This document shows, piece by piece, positions 13,139 through 56,663 of a DNA stretch of 64,000 nucleotides. Positions within the stretch are counted from its first letter, which is position 1. Each line of letters opens with the position of its first letter. The notes beneath the pieces are model-generated. The model ran no database searches and was not told where the DNA came from. It was given only the letters and a program-made list of their open reading frames with translations. The stretch is from an uncultured Ruminiclostridium sp. Lineage in GTDB: Bacteria > Bacillota > Clostridia > Oscillospirales > Oscillospiraceae. The stretch is from the NCBI GenBank assembly GCA_964453275.1, contig CAYVNT010000002.1, positions 206,417-270,416 of the forward strand. Direction: 5' to 3'. Position numbers and translations under genes: made by a program.

Positions 13139-13229
13139 TGGCGGAGAAGGAGGGATTTGAACCCTCGCTACGGTTTCCCGTACTACTCCCTTAGCAGGGG
13201 AGCCCCTTCGGCCACTTGGGTACTTCTCC
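13139..13229 (-). tRNA. tRNA-Ser(GCT)
   Basis: GGAGAAG acceptor stem, CTCCC-CT GCT AA-GGGAG anticodon arm, long variable arm, GGTTCAAATCC T-loop, encoded CCA. Confidence 0.97.
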
Positions 13230-13254
13230 AAATGACAGAACAAAACAAAATAAA

Positions 13255-13341
13255 TGGCGGAGAGAGTGGGATTCGAACCCACGGCCCTTTCGGGTCACTG
13301 GTTTTCAAGACCAGCTCCTTAAACCGCTCGGACATCTCTCC
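13255..13341 (-). tRNA. tRNA-Ser(TGA)
   Basis: GGAGAGA acceptor stem, CTGGT-CT TGA AA-ACCAG, variable arm, GGTTCGAATCC, encoded CCA. Confidence 0.97.
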
Positions 13342-15682: not shown

Positions 15683-15954
15683 AGGACCGCACACCGGCCT
15701 TTGAAGTATATGTTATCTCCGCCTCTCCGACAGCTGGCTCAAACCCGGCGCTCCCACGGCACACACAGCGATCTGCTTAGTGCTGCTTAGTTCCCTACCT
15801 GACACGGTTCACAGGACCATGTTGCGCGGGACCGGCTTCTCATCGCTGCTCATCGGCAACTGACAAAACAACATATATCCGGGGGCCGGGATTCATCCCT
15901 GCTGTAGCGGATTGCAGGCATAGGGCACCGCTGACTCCCCGACTAGTGCGGCCT
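15683..15954 (-). ncRNA. ffs: Large (Firmicutes-type) signal recognition particle RNA
   Basis: Terminal stem GGCCGCAC/GTGCGGTC, Alu-like GCGGTGCCCT..CCTGCAATCCGC, helix 8 GTGAACC.TGTCAGG-TAG GGAA CTA-AGCAGC; canonical position upstream of dnaX. Confidence 0.93.
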
Positions 15955-19951: not shown

Positions 19952-21457
19952 ATGAGCGATCTAAAAAAGCTGACCAACGAAGTGGGCGCACCCGTTGCCG
20001 ACAACGAACACGCCATCACTGCCGGTCCGAGAGGCCCGGTTGTCATGCAAGATGTCTGGATGATGGAAAAAATGGCCCATTTCAACCGTGAAGTCATCCC
20101 CGAACGCCGCATGCATGCCAAGGGCTGGGGCGCCTACGGCACCTTTACCGTCACCCACGACATCTCTCGTTACACCAAAGCAAAGGTTTTGCAACCGGGT
20201 AAAAAAACAGATCTTTTCGTCCGTTTTTCTACCGTGGCAGGTGAACGCGGCGCCGCCGACTGTGAACGCGATATCAGAGGCGTTGCTGTGAAATTCTACA
20301 CCGAGGAGGGCAACTGGGATCTGGTCGGCAACAATACCCCTACCTTCTTCATTCGCGATGTCCATAATTTCGCGGACCTGAACCGTGCGGTCAAGCGCGA
20401 TCCGCGGACCGGTCGCCGCTCCGCACAAAATAACTGGGATTTTTGGACCTTGCTGCCGGAATGCTTCCATCAAATCACCATCGTTATGAGTGATCGCGGC
20501 ATCCCTGCCTCCTTCCGTCAGATGCACTTCTTTGGCGAACATACCTTCTCTTTCTACAATGAAAAAAATGAGCGTGTCTGGTGTAAGTTCCACTTTAAAA
20601 CCCAGCAGGGCATTCAGAACCTGTCCAATGAAGAAGCGGCAAACATCAACGGTATGGACAGAGAACATCATGGCAAGGATTTATATGAGGCCATTGAAGC
20701 CAAAAACTTCCCCAAGTGGACCATGTATGTGCAGATCATGACCGAAGCGCAAGCCAAGCAGCATCATGAAAACCCCTTTGATATCACCAAGATTTGGCGT
20801 CACGCAGACTATCCCCTGATTGAAGTTGGTGTGTTGGAGTTAAATCGCAATCCCGACAACTACTTTGCCGAAGTGGAACAGGCTGCTTTTACCCCTGCTC
20901 ACGTGGTGCCCGGCATCGGTTTCTCGCCGGATCGCTTTTTGCAAGGCAGACTCTTTGCCTACGGCGATGCACAACGCTACCGTCTTGGCGTCAACCACAA
21001 TCAAATCCCCGTGAACCAAGCAAAATGCGCAGTCAGCGACTATCACCGTGATGGCGCCATGCGTGTGGACGGCAACTACGGCGGCGCACCTGCGTATACC
21101 CCAAACAGCTACGGCGCATGGACCGCCCAGCCCGAGGTGATGGAACCCCCGCTGGATTTGGACGGGGCCATGTATCGCTATGATCCAAAGGACGATCCGA
21201 GCGATGACTGTTTCCGCGCCGGCGGAGATCTGTGGCGTATTCTCACCGAGGATAAAAAACAGATTCTCATTGACAATACTGCCGGCGACATTGCCCCATG
21301 CACAGAGAATATCAAATATCGTCACGCCGTACACTGCTACTTGGCGGATGAAGAATACGGCAAACGCTTTACCGCGGCAGCAGGTTTGGACATGGACAAA
21401 GTGGTGACCTTATCCAAGTTGGATCACAACGGTCTCATCGCCGCCACCATGCCCTGA
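19952..21457 (+). CDS. katA: Monofunctional heme catalase
   Basis: [45 protein letters not shown]. Confidence 0.97.
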
Positions 21458-47161: not shown

Positions 47162-48352
47162 TTAAGTCCTAGTATTTTCTAGTGCGAACATTTTTACAGT
47201 AATGAAAAGAGTTCTCCAGTGCCCTTTATCTTTGCCAACGGATTGAGGATTGTTCCCTAAAGTTCTACTGCGCTCAACAGTTGTGCAGACTAGCTCCTTC
47301 CCTAAAACTTCCATAACCAAAAAAGGATCATGCGTCCACCGATAATAACCATCATCGCCGATTTCAATTAGTGCTCTAAAAGCGCCAACAATTGGATATA
47401 AAAAACCCGTAGGCGTCAGAAAATCCATCTCCTGTTGATAAAATTTCGAGACGTTCTTAGCTCTATTTGCTTCTCCGACCACACCTTTAACTCTACCATA
47501 GCGTCCACCTTGACTACCATCGTAGTAATACTCGCCGATTTTAGTTTCTAACTTATTATAAAGCTTAAAAACATCTATAATCAAGGGTATCATTTTTACA
47601 TATGGATTTTGGATTGTTTCACCAAAAACTTTGTGCATTTTTATATAACGCTCAGTGCACTTGGCTCTTCCGGAATATGATTGTGTCGGATATGTTTCTG
47701 TTTGTGAGTTTGGATATTCGTCTAGATTAAAAAGATTTAATATTGCTAAGATCTCTGTGATGTCTATTTCCCCATTAGTATTTTCTTTATAGGCAATACG
47801 ATCCATCATTTTTGGTTCGTTTTTTAGTACATTTTTAATAATGTCAAATCGATCTTCTAATTCAGCAATTGATTGTTCACGAACTTGAACAGAAGTATTT
47901 CTTGCTGCTGCAAGTTGAGAAAAAATGTCTTCAACTCCTGTAAGAATTTCAATTTTGACAAACTGTGTTCCAGGTGTAATCTTATGTTTAAGTTCTTTTA
48001 TGATACGATACGTGTGCCCGCCATCAATGTTTCCGTGAATTTCTTCATCAGTAAAGACAATTGTCAGTTCATTATTGGAATTATTGTAAATTACTTTTTC
48101 TGCTGAAAGCACGAGACCACGATTCAAAAGGTAAAAATTCTTTTCTGCCTCTGCTTCCAAAGACTGCTTAATTCTTTTAGCCACACTAGTTCCCAGATTT
48201 TGCTCGCGTGGATTAGTTTGCATGGGGATGTCAGTTGGAATTTCGGTTACATCACAGATAGCAAAATATGTTTGTGCTGAATCATCTTTAGCATCGGGGT
48301 AAGGGTTAGGTAGTTTGCGAAATGCACTCACAATAAAAGTTGTTTTTGTCAT
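47162..48352 (-). CDS. AIPR family (abortive infection phage resistance) protein
   Basis: TNPRE, FYLLNRGL, NIDGGHTYRII, AAARNTSVQV; AT-rich. Confidence 0.8.
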   Translation of the reverse strand: MTKTTFIVSAFRKLPNPYPDAKDDSAQTYFAICDVTEIPTDIPMQTNPREQNLGTSVAKRIKQSLEAEAEKNFYLLNRGLVLSAEKVIYNNSNNELTIVFTDEEIHGNIDGGHTYRIIKELKHKITPGTQFVKIEILTGVEDIFSQLAAARNTSVQVREQSIAELEDRFDIIKNVLKNEPKMMDRIAYKENTNGEIDITEILAILNLFNLDEYPNSQTETYPTQSYSGRAKCTERYIKMHKVFGETIQNPYVKMIPLIIDVFKLYNKLETKIGEYYYDGSQGGRYGRVKGVVGEANRAKNVSKFYQQEMDFLTPTGFLYPIVGAFRALIEIGDDGYYRWTHDPFLVMEVLGKELVCTTVERSRTLGNNPQSVGKDKGHWRTLFITVKMFALENTRT

Positions 48353-48482
48353 AATGGTTTTCCTTTCTTTTTTACAAATTACGTGTAATTGTGTAGATAC
48401 GTGATTTGACTCACCATCTATTTTCTAGTATAATATGGATATTAGAAATAATCAATAATCACTTTTGATTAGAGGATATGAC

Positions 48483-48632
48483 ATGGATAAATATGAACGT
48501 GAGTTTTGCATCAAATTTGCCAGCAGATTAAAAGCTTTACGCAATAATGAAGGAATGACTCAAAAAGAATTTTCAGATGCCTGCGGCATATGTATTCCTG
48601 CATTTCTGTGCAGAGAAAGCCGGGCATTTTGA
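48483..48632 (+). pseudogene. Truncated XRE/Cro HTH gene fused to antisense integrase DNA
   Basis: MDKYEREFCIKFASRLKALRNNEGMTQKEFSDACGI, then an abrupt switch at about 48590. Confidence 0.7.
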
Positions 48633-49374
48633 CAATCCGATTGCTTTTTGGTGTCTTGGGGTCTGTGATAACATCCTCTCCCAAAAGCCGCTGATAGGAC
48701 TTGCTGATGGCAACCGTACTTTTCTCAAAGTCAAAGTCCGCAGGGGTGAGGGCTAAAAGTTCACCCAGCCGAATGCCGCACCAGTAGAGCATCTGAAAGG
48801 CATAGTAGGAAAGGGGCTTGTCCATCATCACCTCGGCAAATTTTTTGTACTCATCTTTCGTCCAAAACAGCATTTCCTTGCCCTGCCTTTTTCCCATGTT
48901 GCCAGCCTTTGCCGCTGAATTGGATTTCAGCTCATAAAACCGCACCGCATGATTTAGAATGGCAGAAAGCTGATTGTGCAGTGTTTTGAGATAGGTTTCT
49001 GAATAAGGATTGCCCTTTTCATCCCGATAACCAATCATTTCATTTTGCCACTGGATAACATCCGCTGGGCGAATGTCGTTCATCCGCTTGCCCCCAAAGG
49101 AGGGGAGCAGCTTTGTTTCAATGATGTGCTTTTTCGTCTGCCAAGTGTTGCGGCGCAACCGTACCTCCATGTCTTTTGTATAAACCTCCACAAAGCTGGA
49201 AAAGGTCATATCCAAGTTGGAGGCTTTTTGCTGCTGGAAGGTACGCTCCCATTCCAGCGCCTCACGCTTGGTCTTAAACCCTCGTTTCATTTTCTTTTCC
49301 TTTTGCCCCCTCCAATTTTCATAGTAAAAGGCGGCGTACCATGTTCCTTTTGCGTTGTCTTTGTATGCTGGCAT
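48511..49374 (-). pseudogene. Tyrosine integrase, C-terminally truncated
   Basis: Arm-binding N-terminus (KRGFKTKREA), CGIRLGELLAL, PKTPKS; HxxR and catalytic Tyr are missing after EMQEYI. Confidence 0.88.
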
Positions 49375-49385
49375 TTTGTTCCTCC

Positions 49386-49574
49386 TTACTGGCTGCTGCG
49401 CAGTCCATAAAATTTTTCCTCGTAATACTGGCGGCTTACCCGCCCGGCGATGGTCATAAAGCCTTTACCCTTTAATTCTTCGTTCATTTTCCGCACCAGC
49501 TTGTAGGCATAGGGCTTAGAAACGCCCAAATTCTTTGCAATCTCCTCCACTTTGATAAACAGCTCTTTCTTCAT
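49386..49574 (-). CDS. Excisionase-like HTH protein
   Basis: VEEIAKNLGVSKPYAYKLVRKMNEELKGKGF..IAGRV; directly upstream of int. Confidence 0.85.
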   Translation of the reverse strand: MKKELFIKVEEIAKNLGVSKPYAYKLVRKMNEELKGKGFMTIAGRVSRQYYEEKFYGLRSSQ

Positions 49575-49595
49575 CGTATCAAACCGCCTTTCTTT

Positions 49596-49652
49596 ATTAG
49601 CATATTTGTTAATGTTACCGTATCCTTAGTATACATTATCATATTTGTTAAT
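49596..49652. promoter_or_regulatory. Two 18-bp imperfect palindromes (probable repressor operators)
   Basis: ATTAGCATATTTGTTAAT (49596) and ATTATCATATTTGTTAAT (49635) between divergent xis and XRE genes. Confidence 0.75.
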
Positions 49653-49740
49653 GTCAAGTGTTTATTTCGCTTTTTTGTTAATTTTTATCTTGCATCTTTC
49701 GCTTTTTTGCGCTATACTATTCTCAAAGGCGGTGGAACAG

Positions 49741-50319
49741 ATGACAATAGGTGAGAAAATTAAGAAAATCCGTACCTTTCGTGGCATGACACAAAAGGAG
49801 TTCGGCTTGGCAATCGGGCTGGAGGAGAAGGGCGCCGACAACCGTATTGCCCAATATGAAACCAACTACCGTATTCCCAAGAGGGATATGCTGGAGCAGA
49901 TGGCGGCGGTGCTGCGTGTCAGTCCGATGAATTTTTACAGTGATGCCCCGGACTGCGCCGAGGACATCATGCAGACCTTTTTTTGGCTGGACGAGGATAA
50001 CCCCGGCGCTATCAATCTGTTTCAGCTTGTGCGCAACTCCGGCAAGACAAATGCCTCTGATGATACCTCTGTGCGCTACAACGACAATGACGATTGGCCT
50101 GCCCATGCCCCTGTGGGGATGTACTTCAAGTATGGACTGGTTGATCAATTTATGAAGGAATGGCTGCTGCGCAAAGAGGAACTAAAGGCTGGCAGTATCA
50201 CTCGCAGCGAATACTTCGAGTGGAAATTAGGCTTTCCGCAGACCTGTGATGATTGTGGAAGGCAAGAACCTTCGGTGCAGTGGAGGGAGGTACGCCATGA
50301 GGATGCCCAGAGCGATTGA
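49741..50319 (+). CDS. XRE family repressor of the integrative module
   Basis: MTIGEKIKKIRTFRGMTQKEFGLAIG...RIAQYETNYRIPK. Confidence 0.9.
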   Translation: MTIGEKIKKIRTFRGMTQKEFGLAIGLEEKGADNRIAQYETNYRIPKRDMLEQMAAVLRVSPMNFYSDAPDCAEDIMQTFFWLDEDNPGAINLFQLVRNSGKTNASDDTSVRYNDNDDWPAHAPVGMYFKYGLVDQFMKEWLLRKEELKAGSITRSEYFEWKLGFPQTCDDCGRQEPSVQWREVRHEDAQSD

Positions 50320-50879: not shown

Positions 50880-52169
50880 TCATTCCCACTCAATCGTTCC
50901 AACTGGTTTGGGGGTCAGGTCATATAGGACACGGTTGACGCCTTTTACCTCATTGGTAATACGGTTGGTGATATGAGAAAGCAGGGCAAAGTCGACGGGT
51001 TCGACGGTGGCGGTCATGGCGTCGATGGTATTGACAGCGCGCAGGATAACCGGCCATTCAAAGGTACGCAAATGATCGCGCACACCGACAGAATGGATAT
51101 CAGGGATAGCGGTAAAGTACTGCCAGACCTTACCTTCAAGTCCTGCCTTGGCGAATTCTTCGCGCAAGATAGCATCCGATTCGCGCACAGCCTCCAAGCG
51201 GTCGCGCGTGATAGCGCCGAGGCAGCGCACGCCGAGGCCGGGTCCCGGGAAAGGCTGACGATACACCATCTCCGCAGGCAAGCCCAGCGCGACGCCGCAA
51301 GCACGCACTTCGTCCTTAAAGAGCATTTTAAGCGGTTCCACGAGGGAAAACTGCAGATCTTCAGGCAGGCCGCCAACATTATGGTGACTCTTGACCGCTT
51401 TGACTGTTTTGGTGCCGCTTTCAATGATATCGGGGTAAATGGTACCTTGTGCAAGGAAATCAATCCCCTCGAGCTTACGCGCTTCTTCTTCGAACACACG
51501 GATAAACTCTGCCCCGATGATTTTTCGTTTCTGTTCAGGATCCGCAACGCCAGCAAGCTTGTCCAAAAAGCGATCTACCGCATCGACGTAGACCAGATTA
51601 GCCGCCATCTGATTACGAAACACCTCAACCACCTGCTCCGGTTCGCCCTTACGCAACAGGCCGTGGTTGACATGTACGCAAGTGAGCTGCTTACCAATCG
51701 CCTTGATCAGCAGCGCAGCCACCACCGAGGAATCCACGCCGCCGGAGAGCGCCAGCAGCACCTGACTTTCACCTACTTGACGGCGGATCAGTTCGATCTG
51801 ATCGGAGAGAAAGTTTTCAATGGTCCAGTTTGCTTCCGCCTGACAAGTATCAAAGACAAACGCCGAAAGCGCTTTCTTTCTCGCCGCGTCTTCCGCCGGC
51901 CAAGGTTTTTCGCCCTTGTGATCCACGCAAAGAATCGGCAGCCCACTGTCATACACTGCTTTGCTCGCGTCGATTTCCACCCCATCCACCACACGGTTCG
52001 GGCCACCATTTAAGAGGATGCCACGCACGCCCGGCAGGGCGTTCAATTCCTCTGCGGTTAAATCATGCGGATGAATCTCCGAGTATACACCCAATGCCCG
52101 GATCTCACGCGCAATTTGTGGATTTTGCTCACTACCAAGGTCCAAAATCAGTATCATGTCTTGCTTCAT
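50880..52169 (-). CDS. guaA: GMP synthase homologue with a shortened, degenerate glutamine amidotransferase domain
   Basis: ALSGGVDSSV, VNHGLLRKGE, LAQGTIYPD, KSHHNVGGLP, QPFPGPGL, DLTPKPVGTIEWE; 429 aa, with no GICYG or FHPE motifs. Confidence 0.9.
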   Translation of the reverse strand: MKQDMILILDLGSEQNPQIAREIRALGVYSEIHPHDLTAEELNALPGVRGILLNGGPNRVVDGVEIDASKAVYDSGLPILCVDHKGEKPWPAEDAARKKALSAFVFDTCQAEANWTIENFLSDQIELIRRQVGESQVLLALSGGVDSSVVAALLIKAIGKQLTCVHVNHGLLRKGEPEQVVEVFRNQMAANLVYVDAVDRFLDKLAGVADPEQKRKIIGAEFIRVFEEEARKLEGIDFLAQGTIYPDIIESGTKTVKAVKSHHNVGGLPEDLQFSLVEPLKMLFKDEVRACGVALGLPAEMVYRQPFPGPGLGVRCLGAITRDRLEAVRESDAILREEFAKAGLEGKVWQYFTAIPDIHSVGVRDHLRTFEWPVILRAVNTIDAMTATVEPVDFALLSHITNRITNEVKGVNRVLYDLTPKPVGTIEWE

Positions 52170-52261
52170 TCCTATGCCTCCTACTGCTTATGACAATTCT
52201 TGCTTCTATCGTACCACATTCCCTAGTGTCTCCGCAAGAAAAAAATAGACTAAAACAGTCA

Positions 52262-52999
52262 TTACATCTTCGGTACAAAAGTAGGCATAGGCAACAATTT
52301 ATGCAGGTTCAGTCTGTTCATCCGGTCAATAAGGGCCTTGGTGGACGCATCCTCGCAGACGCCCTCGCGAATATAGCGATCCAATACGGCATAAGAAAAG
52401 CCCAGATTATCTTCGTCGGTTTTGCCGCAGAGACCGTCTATCGGCACTTTGTCCACGAACTGATCCGGCAAACCGAGCGCCCTGCCCAGGGCCCGCACCT
52501 CTGTCACGGTGAACTTGGCCAGCGGACTAAAGTCCCCGGCCGCATCACCAAACTTGGTGGAATAACCAACCCAGTCCTCGCTCAAGTTGCAGGTGTTGGC
52601 CACACGCCCCCCCACAATCGCGGAGATGGCGTAGAGCGTACTCATGCGAATCCGCGCAGGGCTGTTGAAGGTCGCGACCTCATTGAGCGTCAGGCCCGCC
52701 TGTCCGATGGCATCATAAAGCGCCTGCACCGCAGCGGCCACATTGACCTCCACAAAGTCAATCTCCAACGTCCGGCACAGCGCGTAGGAAACCGCAATGT
52801 CTTCCTGCGACCCTTGCGGCATCAATACGCCGAGCACCCGCTCGCGCCCAAGCGCCTGCACACAGAGCGCAGCCACAACTGAACTGTCCTTTCCGCCGCT
52901 GATCCCGACGACGGCTTTGGTCTCCGGCGTTCCGTTTTGTTCAAAATAGTCTTGGACCCACTTGATGAGCTCTGATTTGATCTGATTCGCGTCAAACAT
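52262..52999 (-). CDS. nadE: NH3-dependent-type NAD+ synthetase (no glutaminase domain)
   Basis: GISGGKDSSVVA, NSPARIRM, GYSTKFGD, DFSPL, PIDGL, DEDNLGFSY; 245 aa. Confidence 0.92.
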   Translation of the reverse strand: MFDANQIKSELIKWVQDYFEQNGTPETKAVVGISGGKDSSVVAALCVQALGRERVLGVLMPQGSQEDIAVSYALCRTLEIDFVEVNVAAAVQALYDAIGQAGLTLNEVATFNSPARIRMSTLYAISAIVGGRVANTCNLSEDWVGYSTKFGDAAGDFSPLAKFTVTEVRALGRALGLPDQFVDKVPIDGLCGKTDEDNLGFSYAVLDRYIREGVCEDASTKALIDRMNRLNLHKLLPMPTFVPKM

Positions 53000-53168: not shown

Positions 53169-53197
53169 AACATATCAGCAATCGATATCTCTGTCAA
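53169..53197 (-). promoter_or_regulatory. Sigma-A promoter about 160 nt upstream of nadE
   Basis: TTGACA-17-TATGTT with extended TG. Confidence 0.7.
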
Positions 53198-53281
53198 GTT
53201 TACCGCTTCACGCGGACGCAAAAGAATCCGAACCATTGTCCGGTGACATTTGGTTCGGATTCTTGTCATGTATGCCTAAGC

Positions 53282-53980
53282 TTACACCCTGATCATGCGG
53301 TAGCCCACGCCGATGTGCGTTTGAATATACTTGGGCGCGGTGGCATCCGCTTCGATTTTCTTGCGTAGCGTCGCCATGAATACCCGCAGCGAGGCCACGT
53401 CGTTGTCCCAGGCGCTGCCCCAGATTTCACGCGTGATGAAGGTATGCGTCAACACCTTGCCGGTATGTTTGGCAAGCAGACAGAGCAGTTTATACTCGAT
53501 AGGCGTCAGGTGAAGTTCTTCTTCGCTCAAAAACGCACAGCCGGCAGCATAGTCGATCTTCAACGCGCCGTTTTCATACACGGTTCCCTCGCTCCCGGCG
53601 ACAGTGGAGGCGTAGTGCAGGCGGCGGAAGGTCACCCGCAGGCGAGCGAGCAATTCTTCCACAGAAAATGGTTTGGTGAGAAAATCGTCCGCACCGGCGT
53701 CAAGCGCCTCAATTTTGTCAACATCCTCACTTCTTGCACTGATGACAATGATGGGCATTTGCGACCAGGAGCGTATTTTCCGAATCAGAGCCACCCCATC
53801 CATATCCGGCAGGCCCAGATCCAGCAAGACGACATCCGGCTTGTGGGACACCGCTTCCAGAATCGCCGCCTCGCCGTTTGGTGCGACATGAAATTTATAG
53901 TCGTGTGTCTCCAGCGTGGTGGTCATCAGGTTGCGGATGGCGGGATCATCCTCCACCACCAAAATCAACGGTTTATTCAT
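53282..53980 (-). CDS. kdpE: KdpE response regulator
   Basis: LLDLGLPDMDG, IIVISAR, HLTPIEYKLL, LRVFMATLRKKIE, IQTHIGVGYR. Confidence 0.95.
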   Translation of the reverse strand: MNKPLILVVEDDPAIRNLMTTTLETHDYKFHVAPNGEAAILEAVSHKPDVVLLDLGLPDMDGVALIRKIRSWSQMPIIVISARSEDVDKIEALDAGADDFLTKPFSVEELLARLRVTFRRLHYASTVAGSEGTVYENGALKIDYAAGCAFLSEEELHLTPIEYKLLCLLAKHTGKVLTHTFITREIWGSAWDNDVASLRVFMATLRKKIEADATAPKYIQTHIGVGYRMIRV

Positions 53981-56663
53981 GCAAGGTCACCTCCTCCAAG
54001 GGTAGTGCAAAGGAAAACACCGTACCCTTGGGACTGTTGTCTGTGACAGAAATCGTGCCGCCATGCGCCGTGACGATGGACTTGCACAGCGCAAGCCCCA
54101 AGCCCAGGCTGCGGCGGCTATCTGCCAAGCCGGGCGCGGCGGTGTAAAACATATCAAACAGCTTCGGCTTGGCCTCGTCGGGAATCCCATCGCCGTTGTC
54201 CGCGATTTCCGTGACCACAAAGCCGTTCTCCTTGACGGTGCGTATGACGATTTTAGAACCCTTTGGCGTGTACTTAATGGCATTATCGATCATATTGATG
54301 ATGACCTGCACAATGAGCTTGGCATCCATTTTGACAACAATGAAATCCTCGGCTTGCTCCACGACGATCTCATGTTCTTCCCCTTGGCGGCAGGTATGGC
54401 TCAAGGCCTCCATAACCACCTCCTCCATCAGCTCGGCGGTCATATTAAGACGCATAGAGCCCTCCTCGATTCTGGTGACGGACAAGAGGTTTTCCACCAG
54501 GTTGATCAGCCACTGGGAGTCATCGTAAATATCAGTATAGAGGCTCTTTCGTTTTTCCTTGCTGAAGGCCTCCTCATTGTTGAGCAGAATGCCCGCATTG
54601 CCGGATATGGCCGTCAAAGGGGTGCGCAGATCATGCGAAATGGAGCGCAGCAGATCGGCGCGCAGCTGCTCGTTTTTCGCCAACACAGCGGCCTCCTGCC
54701 TCTCCTTAAGCGCTTGCTGGCTCTCCAAGGTCAGCGCGCACTCGCCTAAGAGGGAGAGCACAATGCTGTTTTCAAAGGCATCCAGAGGTGTCCCGTTCAT
54801 CGCAATGCCAACCACACCGTAAACCGTATCGTTTACGCGCACGGCAAGATACAAGCACTTGGCATTGCCCAGGGTATTGGTGGTGGCGCCGGCATGTTTA
54901 TTGTTTTTACAAACCCAGGTGGCAACCGCCCTTTCGTTCGGGGACAAATACTCCTGCTCACGAGAAGCCTCTGACACGACAAACACGGAGGGCTCTTGCA
55001 GCACCTGGTGGTCCAGCAGGTAAAACACAATATCTTTTTCCAAGAGCTTCATCAGCTGCCCTGCCGTCACTTTCACAACGGTTTTTCGATCGGTCGATTT
55101 TTGCAGCAGCTGATTGGTCTCGAGCAGCACCTTGGTACGATAGGCGGTTTGCGCCGTGCGTTGGGCATGGCGTTTGATGCGCGTGGCGAGCGTACCGGTT
55201 AAAAAGGCGGAGAGGAACATGATAAAAAAGGTCACCGGATAGCCCCTGTCATAGGCGTTGAGTGTAAAGTATGGCTCTGTGAATAAGAAGTTAAACGTCA
55301 ACACACTGACAAGGGATAGAACCAAGCTATACACCCGGTGGCTCGTCATGATGGCGGTGAGCAAGACGCCAAAAATATAGACCGTTATGATATTGGCTTC
55401 GCTGAAGTTTAAGCTGCGGAAAATGGCCCCGATGCCGGTGGCCAGAAGCAGCACAGCCAAGCTTTTGAGCGCATCCAACCAGCGAAACTCAAAGCGCTCT
55501 TGCCTTGCCTTGACCGCCCGGTAGCTGACCATATTTTTTTCCGGAATGATGTAGATATCCAGACTGGGCGCAGCGGCGGTGAGCCTCTCCGTCAAAGACG
55601 GTTTCCACAGCAAGCCCCGACGGCCCGTGCTGCTTCTGCCGAGCACAATCTTGGATACGCCGGACAATCGAGCAAATTCGGCGATCTGAAAGGGGACATC
55701 GTCGCCATACACCGTCTCAATTTCCGCGCCCAGCTGGCGGGCAAGCGCAATGTTCGTGCGCAGTCTGTTCTTATCCTCCTCGCGCATCACGGCAAAATCA
55801 GGCGTCTCGACGAACAGCGCGGTAAAGCTGCCTTTGAATGCACTGGCCATACGGGCGGCGGTACGAATAATCTTTGCGTTGGTCGGAGACGAGGACAGGC
55901 AGACAAGGACATGTTCATCCGTGTGGTAGTCCGCCTGCGACTGCCTGACCTTTTCCGAAATCTTATTGACGCGGTCGGCACAGCGCCGCAGCGCAATCTC
56001 ACGCAAGGCCGTCAGGTTCTCGACGGCAAAGAAGTGACTCAGCGCCTTATTCGCCTGTTCTTCCCTGTACACCTTGCCTTCTTTGAGCCGTTCGATCAAT
56101 TCTTCCGGTTCAATATCCACCAGTTCCACCTGATCCGCGCGATCAAACACCTTATCGGGAATGCGTTCACGCACTGAAATGCCCGTGATGGAGGCGACAA
56201 TATCGTTGAGGCTTTCAATGTGCTGCACGTTGACGGTGGTGTAAACATCTATGCCCGCTTTGAGCAGTTCGTCCACATCCTGATAGCGTTTGGTATGGCG
56301 GCAGCCTTCTGCGTTCGAGTGCGCCAATTCGTCCACCAAGATCAGCTGCGGATGGCGGCGGATGGCGGCGTCCAGGTCGAATTCTTGGACGGTGATGCCT
56401 TTGTGACTGACGGGCAGGTTGCCCAGTTGTTCCAAACCGTCGAGCAGCGCGCTTGTCTGCGGCCTGGCATGCGGCTCCACGTAACCGGCCACCACATCCA
56501 CACCGCGCCGCTTGGCCTCTTGCGCGGCCTGCAGCATGGCATAGGTCTTGCCGACACCGGCGGCGTAGCCGAAAAATATCTTCAAATGCCCGCGCTGTTC
56601 CGACAGGGCCTCATCTTTGATTTTTCTCAACAACGCTTCCGGATTTGCTCTCGGATCTTCCAC
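53973..56663 (-). CDS. kdpD: KdpD sensor histidine kinase
   Basis: GYAAGVGKTYAML, VDELAHSN, Usp-like domain, four TMs, SISHDLRTPL, GLGLALCKSIV. Confidence 0.96.
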   Translation of the reverse strand: MEDPRANPEALLRKIKDEALSEQRGHLKIFFGYAAGVGKTYAMLQAAQEAKRRGVDVVAGYVEPHARPQTSALLDGLEQLGNLPVSHKGITVQEFDLDAAIRRHPQLILVDELAHSNAEGCRHTKRYQDVDELLKAGIDVYTTVNVQHIESLNDIVASITGISVRERIPDKVFDRADQVELVDIEPEELIERLKEGKVYREEQANKALSHFFAVENLTALREIALRRCADRVNKISEKVRQSQADYHTDEHVLVCLSSSPTNAKIIRTAARMASAFKGSFTALFVETPDFAVMREEDKNRLRTNIALARQLGAEIETVYGDDVPFQIAEFARLSGVSKIVLGRSSTGRRGLLWKPSLTERLTAAAPSLDIYIIPEKNMVSYRAVKARQERFEFRWLDALKSLAVLLLATGIGAIFRSLNFSEANIITVYIFGVLLTAIMTSHRVYSLVLSLVSVLTFNFLFTEPYFTLNAYDRGYPVTFFIMFLSAFLTGTLATRIKRHAQRTAQTAYRTKVLLETNQLLQKSTDRKTVVKVTAGQLMKLLEKDIVFYLLDHQVLQEPSVFVVSEASREQEYLSPNERAVATWVCKNNKHAGATTNTLGNAKCLYLAVRVNDTVYGVVGIAMNGTPLDAFENSIVLSLLGECALTLESQQALKERQEAAVLAKNEQLRADLLRSISHDLRTPLTAISGNAGILLNNEEAFSKEKRKSLYTDIYDDSQWLINLVENLLSVTRIEEGSMRLNMTAELMEEVVMEALSHTCRQGEEHEIVVEQAEDFIVVKMDAKLIVQVIINMIDNAIKYTPKGSKIVIRTVKENGFVVTEIADNGDGIPDEAKPKLFDMFYTAAPGLADSRRSLGLGLALCKSIVTAHGGTISVTDNSPKGTVFSFALPLEEVTLHE

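Follow-up and report, generated by a model that had tools for sequence, protein, structure and literature searches.

The DNA analysed here, referred to as the window, is a stretch of 64,000 nucleotides (nt) from an uncultured Ruminiclostridium sp. (contig CAYVNT010000002.1, positions 206,417 to 270,416), and it was found in four gut-metagenome DNA runs only. It carries a gene for a short paralogue of GuaA, the guanosine monophosphate (GMP) synthase, in which an intact synthetase half follows an amino-terminal stub devoid of the glutaminase catalytic triad. GuaA' is the name used here for the clade of glutaminase-less GuaA paralogues to which the protein belongs, and guaA' for its gene; the features of the locus are listed in Table 1. 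The stop codon of guaA' occupies 50880-50882 on the minus strand, a Shine-Dalgarno sequence (AGGAGG, 52177-52182, minus strand) stands 7 nt ahead of the ATG, and the segment 51810-52169, where a sequence-only reading had located a collapsed glutaminase domain, corresponds to codons 1-120 of the open reading frame (ORF). Independent assembly of another public run gave exactly the same protein. Directly upstream on the same strand lies nadE, across a 92-nt gap in which a consensus scan found no terminator-like site, and the two genes are probably co-transcribed. Two glutaminase-less PP-loop amidoligases are found here in one apparent operon behind one promoter-like site. A conserved nadE-guaA' pairing was considered and rejected: it was seen on this contig only, and one other locus has nadE about 5 kb away. 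An Rfam scan found no riboswitch or other RNA near guaA'.

Table 1. Segments of guaA' and other features of the window, in window coordinates (aa, amino acids).
Feature	Position	Strand	Basis or remark
guaA' ORF, 429-aa GuaA	50880..52169	-	ORF list, domain matches, alignment to solved GMP synthases
Residues 1-82: first half of class I amidotransferase fold, kept	51924..52169	-	PF00117 positions 1-77 of 190, model, identity, dN/dS
Residues 83-97: short variable linker	51879..51923	-	Stands for about 97 canonical residues, including the nucleophile helix and the His/Glu loop
Residues 98-118: last amidotransferase-domain helix, kept, and interdomain connector FVFDTC..ANW..NF	51816..51878	-	Aligns with canonical LLxNFVxxVCGCxGxW
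Residues 119-336: ATP-pyrophosphatase (PP-loop) domain	51162..51815	-	TIGR00884 full-length match, 451 bits
Residues 337-429: dimerisation domain	50883..51161	-	PF00958 positions 1-92 of 92
nadE, 245-aa single-domain NAD synthetase	52262..52999	-	PF02540 and TIGR00552 matches
Promoter-like site upstream of nadE: TTGACA, 17 nt, TATGTT, with TG	53169..53197	-	Consensus scan only
Terminator-like hairpin and T-run, about 130 nt past the guaA' stop codon	50725..50751	-	Consensus scan only
Truncated tyrosine integrase	48511..49374	-	Arm-binding and SAM-like domains and half a catalytic domain; just downstream of guaA'
Helix-turn-helix (HTH) gene	49645..50319	+	Beside the truncated integrase
AIPR abortive-infection-type gene	47162..48352	-	Beside the truncated integrase
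Large SLH-domain protein, 1457 aa	2406-6779	-	No other Pfam match at E <= 1e-5
Large SLH-domain protein, 584 aa	16167-17921	+	No other Pfam match at E <= 1e-5
Large SLH-domain protein, 2452 aa	22861-30219	+	No other Pfam match at E <= 1e-5
KdpD-type sensor kinase (896 aa) and KdpE-type response regulator (232 aa)	53282-56663	-	Directly upstream of nadE

Profile matches divide the protein sharply. The Pfam model of the class I glutamine amidotransferase (GATase), PF00117, matches residues 7-81 only, and the NCBIfam full-length GuaA model PRK00074 resumes at model position 177, which is residue 98. The GuaA amidotransferase-domain model TIGR00888 stays below its cut-off (49.5 bits against 172), whereas TIGR00884 (guaA_Cterm) is matched in full, well above its cut-off of 339 bits, and the protein scores above the NCBIfam whole-protein cut-off for glutamine-hydrolyzing GMP synthase (NF000848), at 542 bits against 400. 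The frame is unbroken, and the remainder of GuaA' aligns end to end with canonical GuaA. The unbroken frame and the full TIGR00884 and PF00958 matches agree with the sequence-only reading that the deletion is in frame and spares the ATP-pyrophosphatase (ATPPase) and dimerisation domains. Its estimate of an amino-terminal domain of about 115 residues was right in that the domain is short, and can now be refined to an 82-residue half-GATase, a 15-residue linker and a helical segment at residues 98-118.

What has been lost can be read from alignments in which GuaA' was set against solved GMP synthases and seven canonical GuaA sequences of other genomes. The segment P-I-L-C81-V82-D83-H84-K85 aligns with canonical P-V-L-G-I-C-Y-G, which places Asp83 at the nucleophile position and leaves the G-x-C-x-G elbow without either of its glycines. 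Residues 82 and 98 are separated by 15 residues in GuaA' but by 97-98 in canonical enzymes, where the span carries the His and Glu of the triad (FHPE). The same alignments confirm the earlier description of PILCVDHK, with Asp in place of the nucleophile, and of the missing FHPE. The Asp itself has no special catalytic meaning, since the position is not conserved within the family (D in 27, G in 14, E in 3, C in 2 and N in 2 of 48 proteins), and a catalytic role for Asp83 was rejected on that ground. Across the family the linker is 6-28 residues long, with a median pairwise identity of 27%. The Cys-His-Glu triad and the elbow are missing from every member, so the glutaminase cannot function, and the architecture predicts no glutamine-dependent GMP formation.

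The stub that remains is well conserved. It ends at the former nucleophile elbow, with Asp83 where the Cys was, and its median pairwise identity over residues 1-82 is 66% within the family versus 51% for the same region of canonical enzymes. Its ratio of nonsynonymous to synonymous substitution rates (dN/dS; Nei-Gojobori, three subclades) is 0.03-0.08, similar to the rest of the protein, although near-saturation of synonymous sites makes these values approximate. AlphaFold2, run on an alignment of 31 sequences, gave a model with a mean predicted local distance difference test score (pLDDT) of 72.6 and ten-residue block means of 71-92 over residues 1-80 and 82-96 over residues 81-120. In this model, residues 1-82 form four strands (5-10, 29-34, 48-54 and 79-82) and three helices that make up a compact alpha/beta unit, after which comes the terminal helix that was kept (residues 94-108, pLDDT 90-96). 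The whole model superposes on bacterial GMP synthases with template modelling (TM) scores of 0.78-0.82 in Foldseek. The stub and helix are probably a folded structural module with no glutaminase role.

The synthetase half, in contrast to the lost glutaminase, retains its machinery. Of 114 alignment columns that do not vary among the seven canonical enzymes, at least 95% of family members agree with the canonical residue in 91, and most key residues are invariant in the 429-aa clade. Residues were mapped by motifs and by carboxy-terminal register. The PP-loop domain holds SGGVDSS (142-148, nt 51726-51746), Arg215, YPD247IIE250S and the lid VK260SHHN264, of the IK(T/S)HHN type; the dimerisation domain holds the carboxy-terminal loop K421-P-V-G-T425-I-E427-W-E429, which binds xanthosine monophosphate (XMP), together with R413 and D417. 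Kept residues accordingly include the PP-loop from S142, D247 and E250, the lid from K260 to N264, K421, I426, E427 and E429 of the phosphate-binding loop, and the cross-subunit R413. D247 and E250 correspond to Plasmodium falciparum Asp371 and Glu374, proposed to position ammonia, and R215, mapped by residue offset from alignment ranges and the conserved KRK motif rather than by direct alignment, corresponds to Methanocaldococcus jannaschii Arg102, the residue that recognises xanthine O6 and singles out XMP (residue roles: PMC4673825, PMC9312489, PMC10526850). All residues that published GMP synthase structures assign to XMP recognition and adenylation are retained. The XMP-binding signature KPPxTxE(F/W)x is matched by K421-P-V-G-T-I-E-W-E, in which the second Pro alone is replaced, and the ATPPase domain is 58% identical to that of canonical GuaA. 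Judged from these residues, the synthetase half looks fully competent and XMP-specific. The family nevertheless has 18 signature positions of its own, and canonical GV(M/Q)GDxRTY reads GV(R/K)(D/N)xxR(S/T)F throughout (in the window GV-R364-D-H-L-R-T-F, residues 362-370, nt about 51060-51086), a change that might prevent the paralogue from pairing with canonical GuaA, or affect a contact with a substrate.

It became clear from database searches that this architecture is neither rare nor local. A search covering 5.8 billion protein clusters, formed at 90% identity, yielded over 100 whose proteins are exactly 429 aa long and 83-87% identical to the window's GuaA', with Oscillibacter hominis, Flavonifractor and Intestinimonas among the named carriers. 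A locus scan with one genome per species yielded 80 related loci, and the stub-bearing form (419-442 aa) was present in 48 of 48 full-length loci inspected from other genomes. Its carriers comprise Oscillospiraceae, Lachnospiraceae, Anaerotruncus, Pelotomaculum and Acidaminobacter on the Clostridia side, Caryophanon and Lysinibacillus among Bacilli, Bacteroides, Alloprevotella, Rikenellaceae and Marinifilaceae among Bacteroidales, and Victivallaceae and one Kiritimatiellaeota metagenome-assembled genome (MAG), and the family thus extends over at least four phyla. The form found in Bacteroidales is very common: single 90% clusters contain 2,000-4,900 sequences, and an exact copy of one protein is indexed in 1,081 collection blocks. 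The remaining scanned loci have a second architecture of about 326 aa, which starts with the synthetase domain, carries no amidotransferase remnant and is 78-84% identical to the synthetase half of the window's protein. The short paralogues in gut Clostridia, to which the sequence-only reading had pointed as a possible uncharacterised subfamily, are therefore real and conserved, but they are not confined to gut Clostridia and include 326-aa forms.

A neighbour-joining tree was computed from 288 columns of the synthetase and dimerisation domains with 200 bootstraps; it holds 48 stub-bearing, 27 stub-less and 12 canonical sequences from the same loci, all of them bacterial. The glutaminase-less proteins form one clade apart from canonical GuaA in 200 of 200 bootstraps, in answer to the phylogeny that the sequence-only reading had called for, and the 326-aa forms nest among the 429-type forms. 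Identity within the clade is 72-99% across phyla (median about 81%), versus 47-64% between GuaA' and the canonical GuaA of the same genomes over the synthetase part, and canonical enzymes among themselves have a median of only 58-64%. GuaA' is thus more alike between Bacteroides and Clostridia than housekeeping enzymes are, and this pattern is best explained, we infer, by horizontal spread among distant anaerobes together with strong constraint. As carriers of that spread, phages were rejected, all phage matches being below 60% identity and hence of canonical type, and so were plasmids, since chromosomal contigs deposited under the name of plasmids may account for the three high-identity "plasmid" matches. 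Database relatives of greater length (472-572 aa) were likewise rejected as new architectures. The two longer top search matches are assembly duplications of the same short form, and the longer relatives recognised as artefacts (P0001, P0006, P0271, P0272, P0279 and P0326 in our list) comprise tandem internal duplications, junk amino-terminal extensions from mis-called starts and a frame-shifted fusion of GuaA' to the carboxy-terminus of the preceding canonical guaA. A representative-library search with the amino-terminal 131 aa returned mostly fragments and no new architecture.

Gene neighbourhoods tie the family to guanine nucleotide synthesis. The product of guaB is inosine monophosphate dehydrogenase, which forms XMP. 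It is encoded in nine of the loci: in seven, guaB lies directly upstream of the paralogue, which thereby stands where guaA classically does, and the other two read guaB-guaA-guaA'. Pairs of guaB and guaA' with no canonical guaA within 10 kb occur in some Rikenellaceae, Marinifilaceae, Oscillospiraceae and 'Mollicutes' MAGs. A canonical full-length guaA with GICYG and FHPE intact lies within 10 kb in 12 of the 80 loci, often adjacent or overlapping. In a widespread human-gut Bacteroides it is 38 nt from a 435-aa paralogue, and within the window's own 429-aa subclade OY725880.1 (labelled Subdoligranulum variabile) has it 148 nt upstream of an 83%-identical GuaA', while one MAG carries both genes on separate short contigs. 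The second full-length guaA that the sequence-only reading had suggested looking for is thus absent from the window and present in close relatives: tblastn with seven canonical GATase domains against the 64 kb matched only the stub itself, with no second guaA or GuaA-type GATase. No canonical guaA lies within 10 kb of guaA' in Oscillibacter hominis, and a search for canonical GuaA in named Oscillibacter and Flavonifractor, with a relative's GATase domain as query, gave mostly fragments. No stand-alone GuaA-type GATase gene was found within 10 kb at any of the 80 loci. In one Clostridia MAG (L053, 1939-4546), a 326-aa paralogue and the canonical guaA that follows it form a single 850-aa frame with no stop between them, a frame explained either by a sequencing error or by a true ATPPase'-GATase-ATPPase fusion.

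Given the loss of the glutaminase, the intact synthetase machinery and the linkage to guaB, ATP-dependent amination of XMP by free ammonia is the most likely activity, and we put at roughly 60% the probability that the window gene encodes an ammonia-dependent GMP synthetase paralogue, with chemistry of the EC 6.3.4.1 type. Among the three options raised by the sequence-only reading, an ammonia-dependent XMP aminase fits the retained XMP- and ATP-contact residues and the guaB linkage best. In the proposed mechanism, the PP-loop domain would bind ATP.Mg and XMP to form adenyl-XMP, and free cytoplasmic ammonia, rather than ammonia channelled from glutamine, would attack C2 to yield GMP, AMP and pyrophosphate. 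The enzyme would act as a dimer through its carboxy-terminal domain. The amidotransferase domain has been cut to a catalytically empty half in the 419-442-aa forms and wholly lost in the 326-aa forms. In most genomes it would probably work beside a canonical glutamine-dependent GuaA, using abundant gut ammonia directly. There is precedent for such chemistry, as the ATPPase modules of GMP synthases, isolated archaeal ATPPase subunits included, make GMP from external ammonia without a GATase (PMC10526850).

Several observations weigh against an ammonia-dependent enzyme. Characterised GMP synthetases have a very high Km for NH4+, 26-174 mM (PMC10526850), so that a useful flux would require adaptation or a very ammonia-rich cytoplasm. 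In many genomes a canonical guaA precedes guaA' by 38-150 nt, and the two are probably co-transcribed; such a tandem is unlike a simple alternative isozyme for different nitrogen regimes and leaves room for a physical partnership. No explanation is at hand for the strong selection on a half-domain to which no catalytic role is assigned, nor for the change of GV(M/Q)GDxRTY to GV(R/K)(D/N)xxR(S/T)F and the loss of the second Pro of KPPxTxEW. In Bacteroides thetaiotaomicron, the gene adjoining the canonical guaA (BT_4265) is, we presume, guaA'. Mutants in BT_4265 are under-represented in vitro and in vivo, according to the passage of PMC4380924 that cites the transposon study, and if the neighbour is GuaA', the paralogue could be no full substitute for the canonical enzyme, with polar effects as an alternative cause. 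A literature search on the B. thetaiotaomicron locus tags returned the TFUMseq paper only (PMC4380924). A more far-reaching account, which we offer tentatively and regard as rather doubtful in its entirety, is that GuaA' proteins are dedicated, adapted ammonia-dependent synthetases that moved horizontally among at least four phyla, replaced the glutamine-dependent enzyme in guaB-guaA' lineages with no nearby canonical copy, and put the half-amidotransferase stub to new use in gating ammonia entry, in allosteric control or in docking.

Docking is also central to a second explanation, that of a partner-dependent synthetase supplied with ammonia by an amidotransferase in trans, in the manner of the archaeal two-subunit GMP synthetases. 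As partner, one may envisage an unlinked GATase subunit or the GATase domain of the canonical GuaA next door, with which GuaA' might heterodimerise; the stub would be the docking surface. We consider this unlikely, though it accounts for much: the tandem or overlapping canonical guaA seen in the 12 loci, in a very common gut Bacteroides and in the window's subclade, and the purifying selection on a stub with no obvious job. Archaeal ATPPase subunits, moreover, bind their GATase only transiently (PMC10526850). However, stand-alone GATase genes of the GuaA type were found neither in the window nor within 10 kb at the 80 loci, the 326-aa relatives have no stub yet share the clade and the contexts, guaB-guaA' pairs exist without a canonical guaA within 10 kb, and in the two-domain enzyme the GATase is tethered to its own ATPPase and rotates onto it (PMC4673825). 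The frequent tandem could also reflect a non-catalytic regulator that heterodimerises with canonical GuaA through the carboxy-terminal domain and tunes its activity, and the dimer-interface residues R413, D417, T425 and E427 are indeed common to both types. We judge such a role improbable: every catalytic and substrate-binding residue is under strong purifying selection, needless for a pure regulator, GuaA' occupies the guaA position after guaB where the canonical copy is not nearby, and the family-specific changes in the dimerisation domain could equally hold the paralogues apart.

A different nucleotide substrate had also been envisaged. The Gln at the GV(M/Q)GD position contacts XMP in eukaryotic enzymes, and its remodelling to GV(R/K)(D/N), with the 18 signature positions, would suit a shift from XMP to, for example, deoxy-XMP (dXMP) or another 2-oxopurine nucleotide, or from ammonia to another amine. 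The Arg that reads xanthine O6 and all phosphate and carboxy-terminal loop contacts are invariant, however, and the similarity of the ATPPase domain to canonical GuaA and the operon linkage to guaB also count against a changed substrate, which we hold to be just as improbable as a regulator; a new nucleotide, in particular, is disfavoured. As for a pseudogene, a decaying remnant or an assembly error, about 80 residues including the whole triad are missing, and a few database entries of the family are obviously mis-assembled, with internal duplications and frame-shifted fusions. The deletion is in frame, however, and more than 100 independent 90%-identity clusters and 48 of 48 loci repeat this architecture, which is neither chance nor an assembly artefact. 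With dN/dS far below 1, a good ribosome-binding site, promoter-like and terminator-like sites and an identical protein from an independent assembly, this explanation is effectively refuted, including the strain-specific pseudogenisation against which the sequence-only reading had cautioned. An ammonia-dependent synthetase is the reading that we retain.

Integrative elements recurrently land at the 3' end of guaA', as observed in the window (47162-50319) and in eight scanned loci (L003, L008, L027, L038, L048, L062, L166 and L168). In six other loci, guaA' is followed by intact homologues of the integrase and HTH genes. Two integrase/NikA/AAA_25 units stand in tandem after guaA' in Oscillibacter hominis, the first of them complete with a Mob_Pre relaxase, and the element after guaA' in OY725880.1 carries tet(W) in two copies. 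A direct repeat of the guaA' 3' end of at least 13 nt, as a mark of the island boundary, was found nowhere else in the window. On the upstream side, a terminator-like hairpin at 53228-53243 separates the KdpD/KdpE-type genes from nadE. Farther off (13142-13341, 15687-15951 and 19952-21457), two tRNA genes and the large bacterial signal recognition particle RNA adjoin dnaX, and a catalase gene lies beside a methyl-accepting chemotaxis protein with a zinc-binding (CZB) domain.

The GuaA' family is large and conserved, and apparently undescribed. Recent reviews of GMP synthases present the fused two-domain type and the archaeal two-subunit type only (PMC10526850), and no description of a glutaminase-less bacterial GMP synthase was found in the literature searched, which included two such reviews and covers a part of the journals. 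Every named example seen in NCBI, nr, UniRef and JGI is called "glutamine-hydrolyzing GMP synthase", a systematic mis-annotation. Databases may already list second "GuaA 2" entries for Bacteroides. GMP synthase is the textbook glutamine amidotransferase with ammonia channelling, and a glutaminase-less family would be a third architecture of the enzyme and would offer a natural experiment on the contribution of the GATase domain to the synthetase. A further implication is that the abundant Bacteroidales and Clostridia of the gut may route free ammonia directly into guanine nucleotides, which would bear on gut nitrogen economy and on metabolic models, and the family predicts a route insensitive to glutamine-analogue inhibitors.

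Canonical two-domain GuaA (EC 6.3.5.2; Escherichia coli 1GPM, Acinetobacter baumannii 7SBC, Neisseria gonorrhoeae 5TW7) shares with GuaA' its fold and domain order, as reflected in the TM scores given above, along with the PP-loop, the lid-loop, the catalytic Asp/Glu, the xanthine-reading Arg, the carboxy-terminal XMP loop and, in some genomes, the guaB-linked position. GuaA' differs in having neither the second amidotransferase half nor the triad, in forming a separate clade, in usually co-existing with a canonical copy, and in its remodelled GV(M/Q)GDxRTY and KPPxTxEW motifs. The archaeal ATPPase subunit GuaAB (Pyrococcus horikoshii PH1347, 2DPL/3A4I; M. jannaschii 6JP9) is likewise a synthetase chain that has no glutaminase of its own and, when isolated, uses external ammonia in vitro (PMC10526850); its alignment with GuaA' covers residues 119-429 of the latter (E about 1e-92; Foldseek target TM 0.88), and the 326-aa relatives have essentially its architecture. 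The archaeal subunit, however, has a dedicated gene for a GATase subunit of about 185-190 aa, of which no counterpart was found near GuaA' (64-kb window; 10 kb at 80 loci), and the window's protein keeps in addition a conserved 118-residue amino-terminal stub. In the tree of bacterial sequences, the GuaA' clade groups with itself and not with its hosts' canonical enzymes. The closest analogy in logic is provided by the neighbouring gene. NadE is a PP-loop adenylating amidoligase that occurs with or without a glutaminase module, the short form taking free ammonia, and the contrast between single-domain NH3-dependent and glutamine-dependent NadE parallels that between GuaA' and canonical GuaA as a matter of mechanism, in a different family and with a different substrate. 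The NadE glutaminase is a nitrilase-type domain that is absent outright from the short form, whereas GuaA' keeps half of a class I GATase domain.

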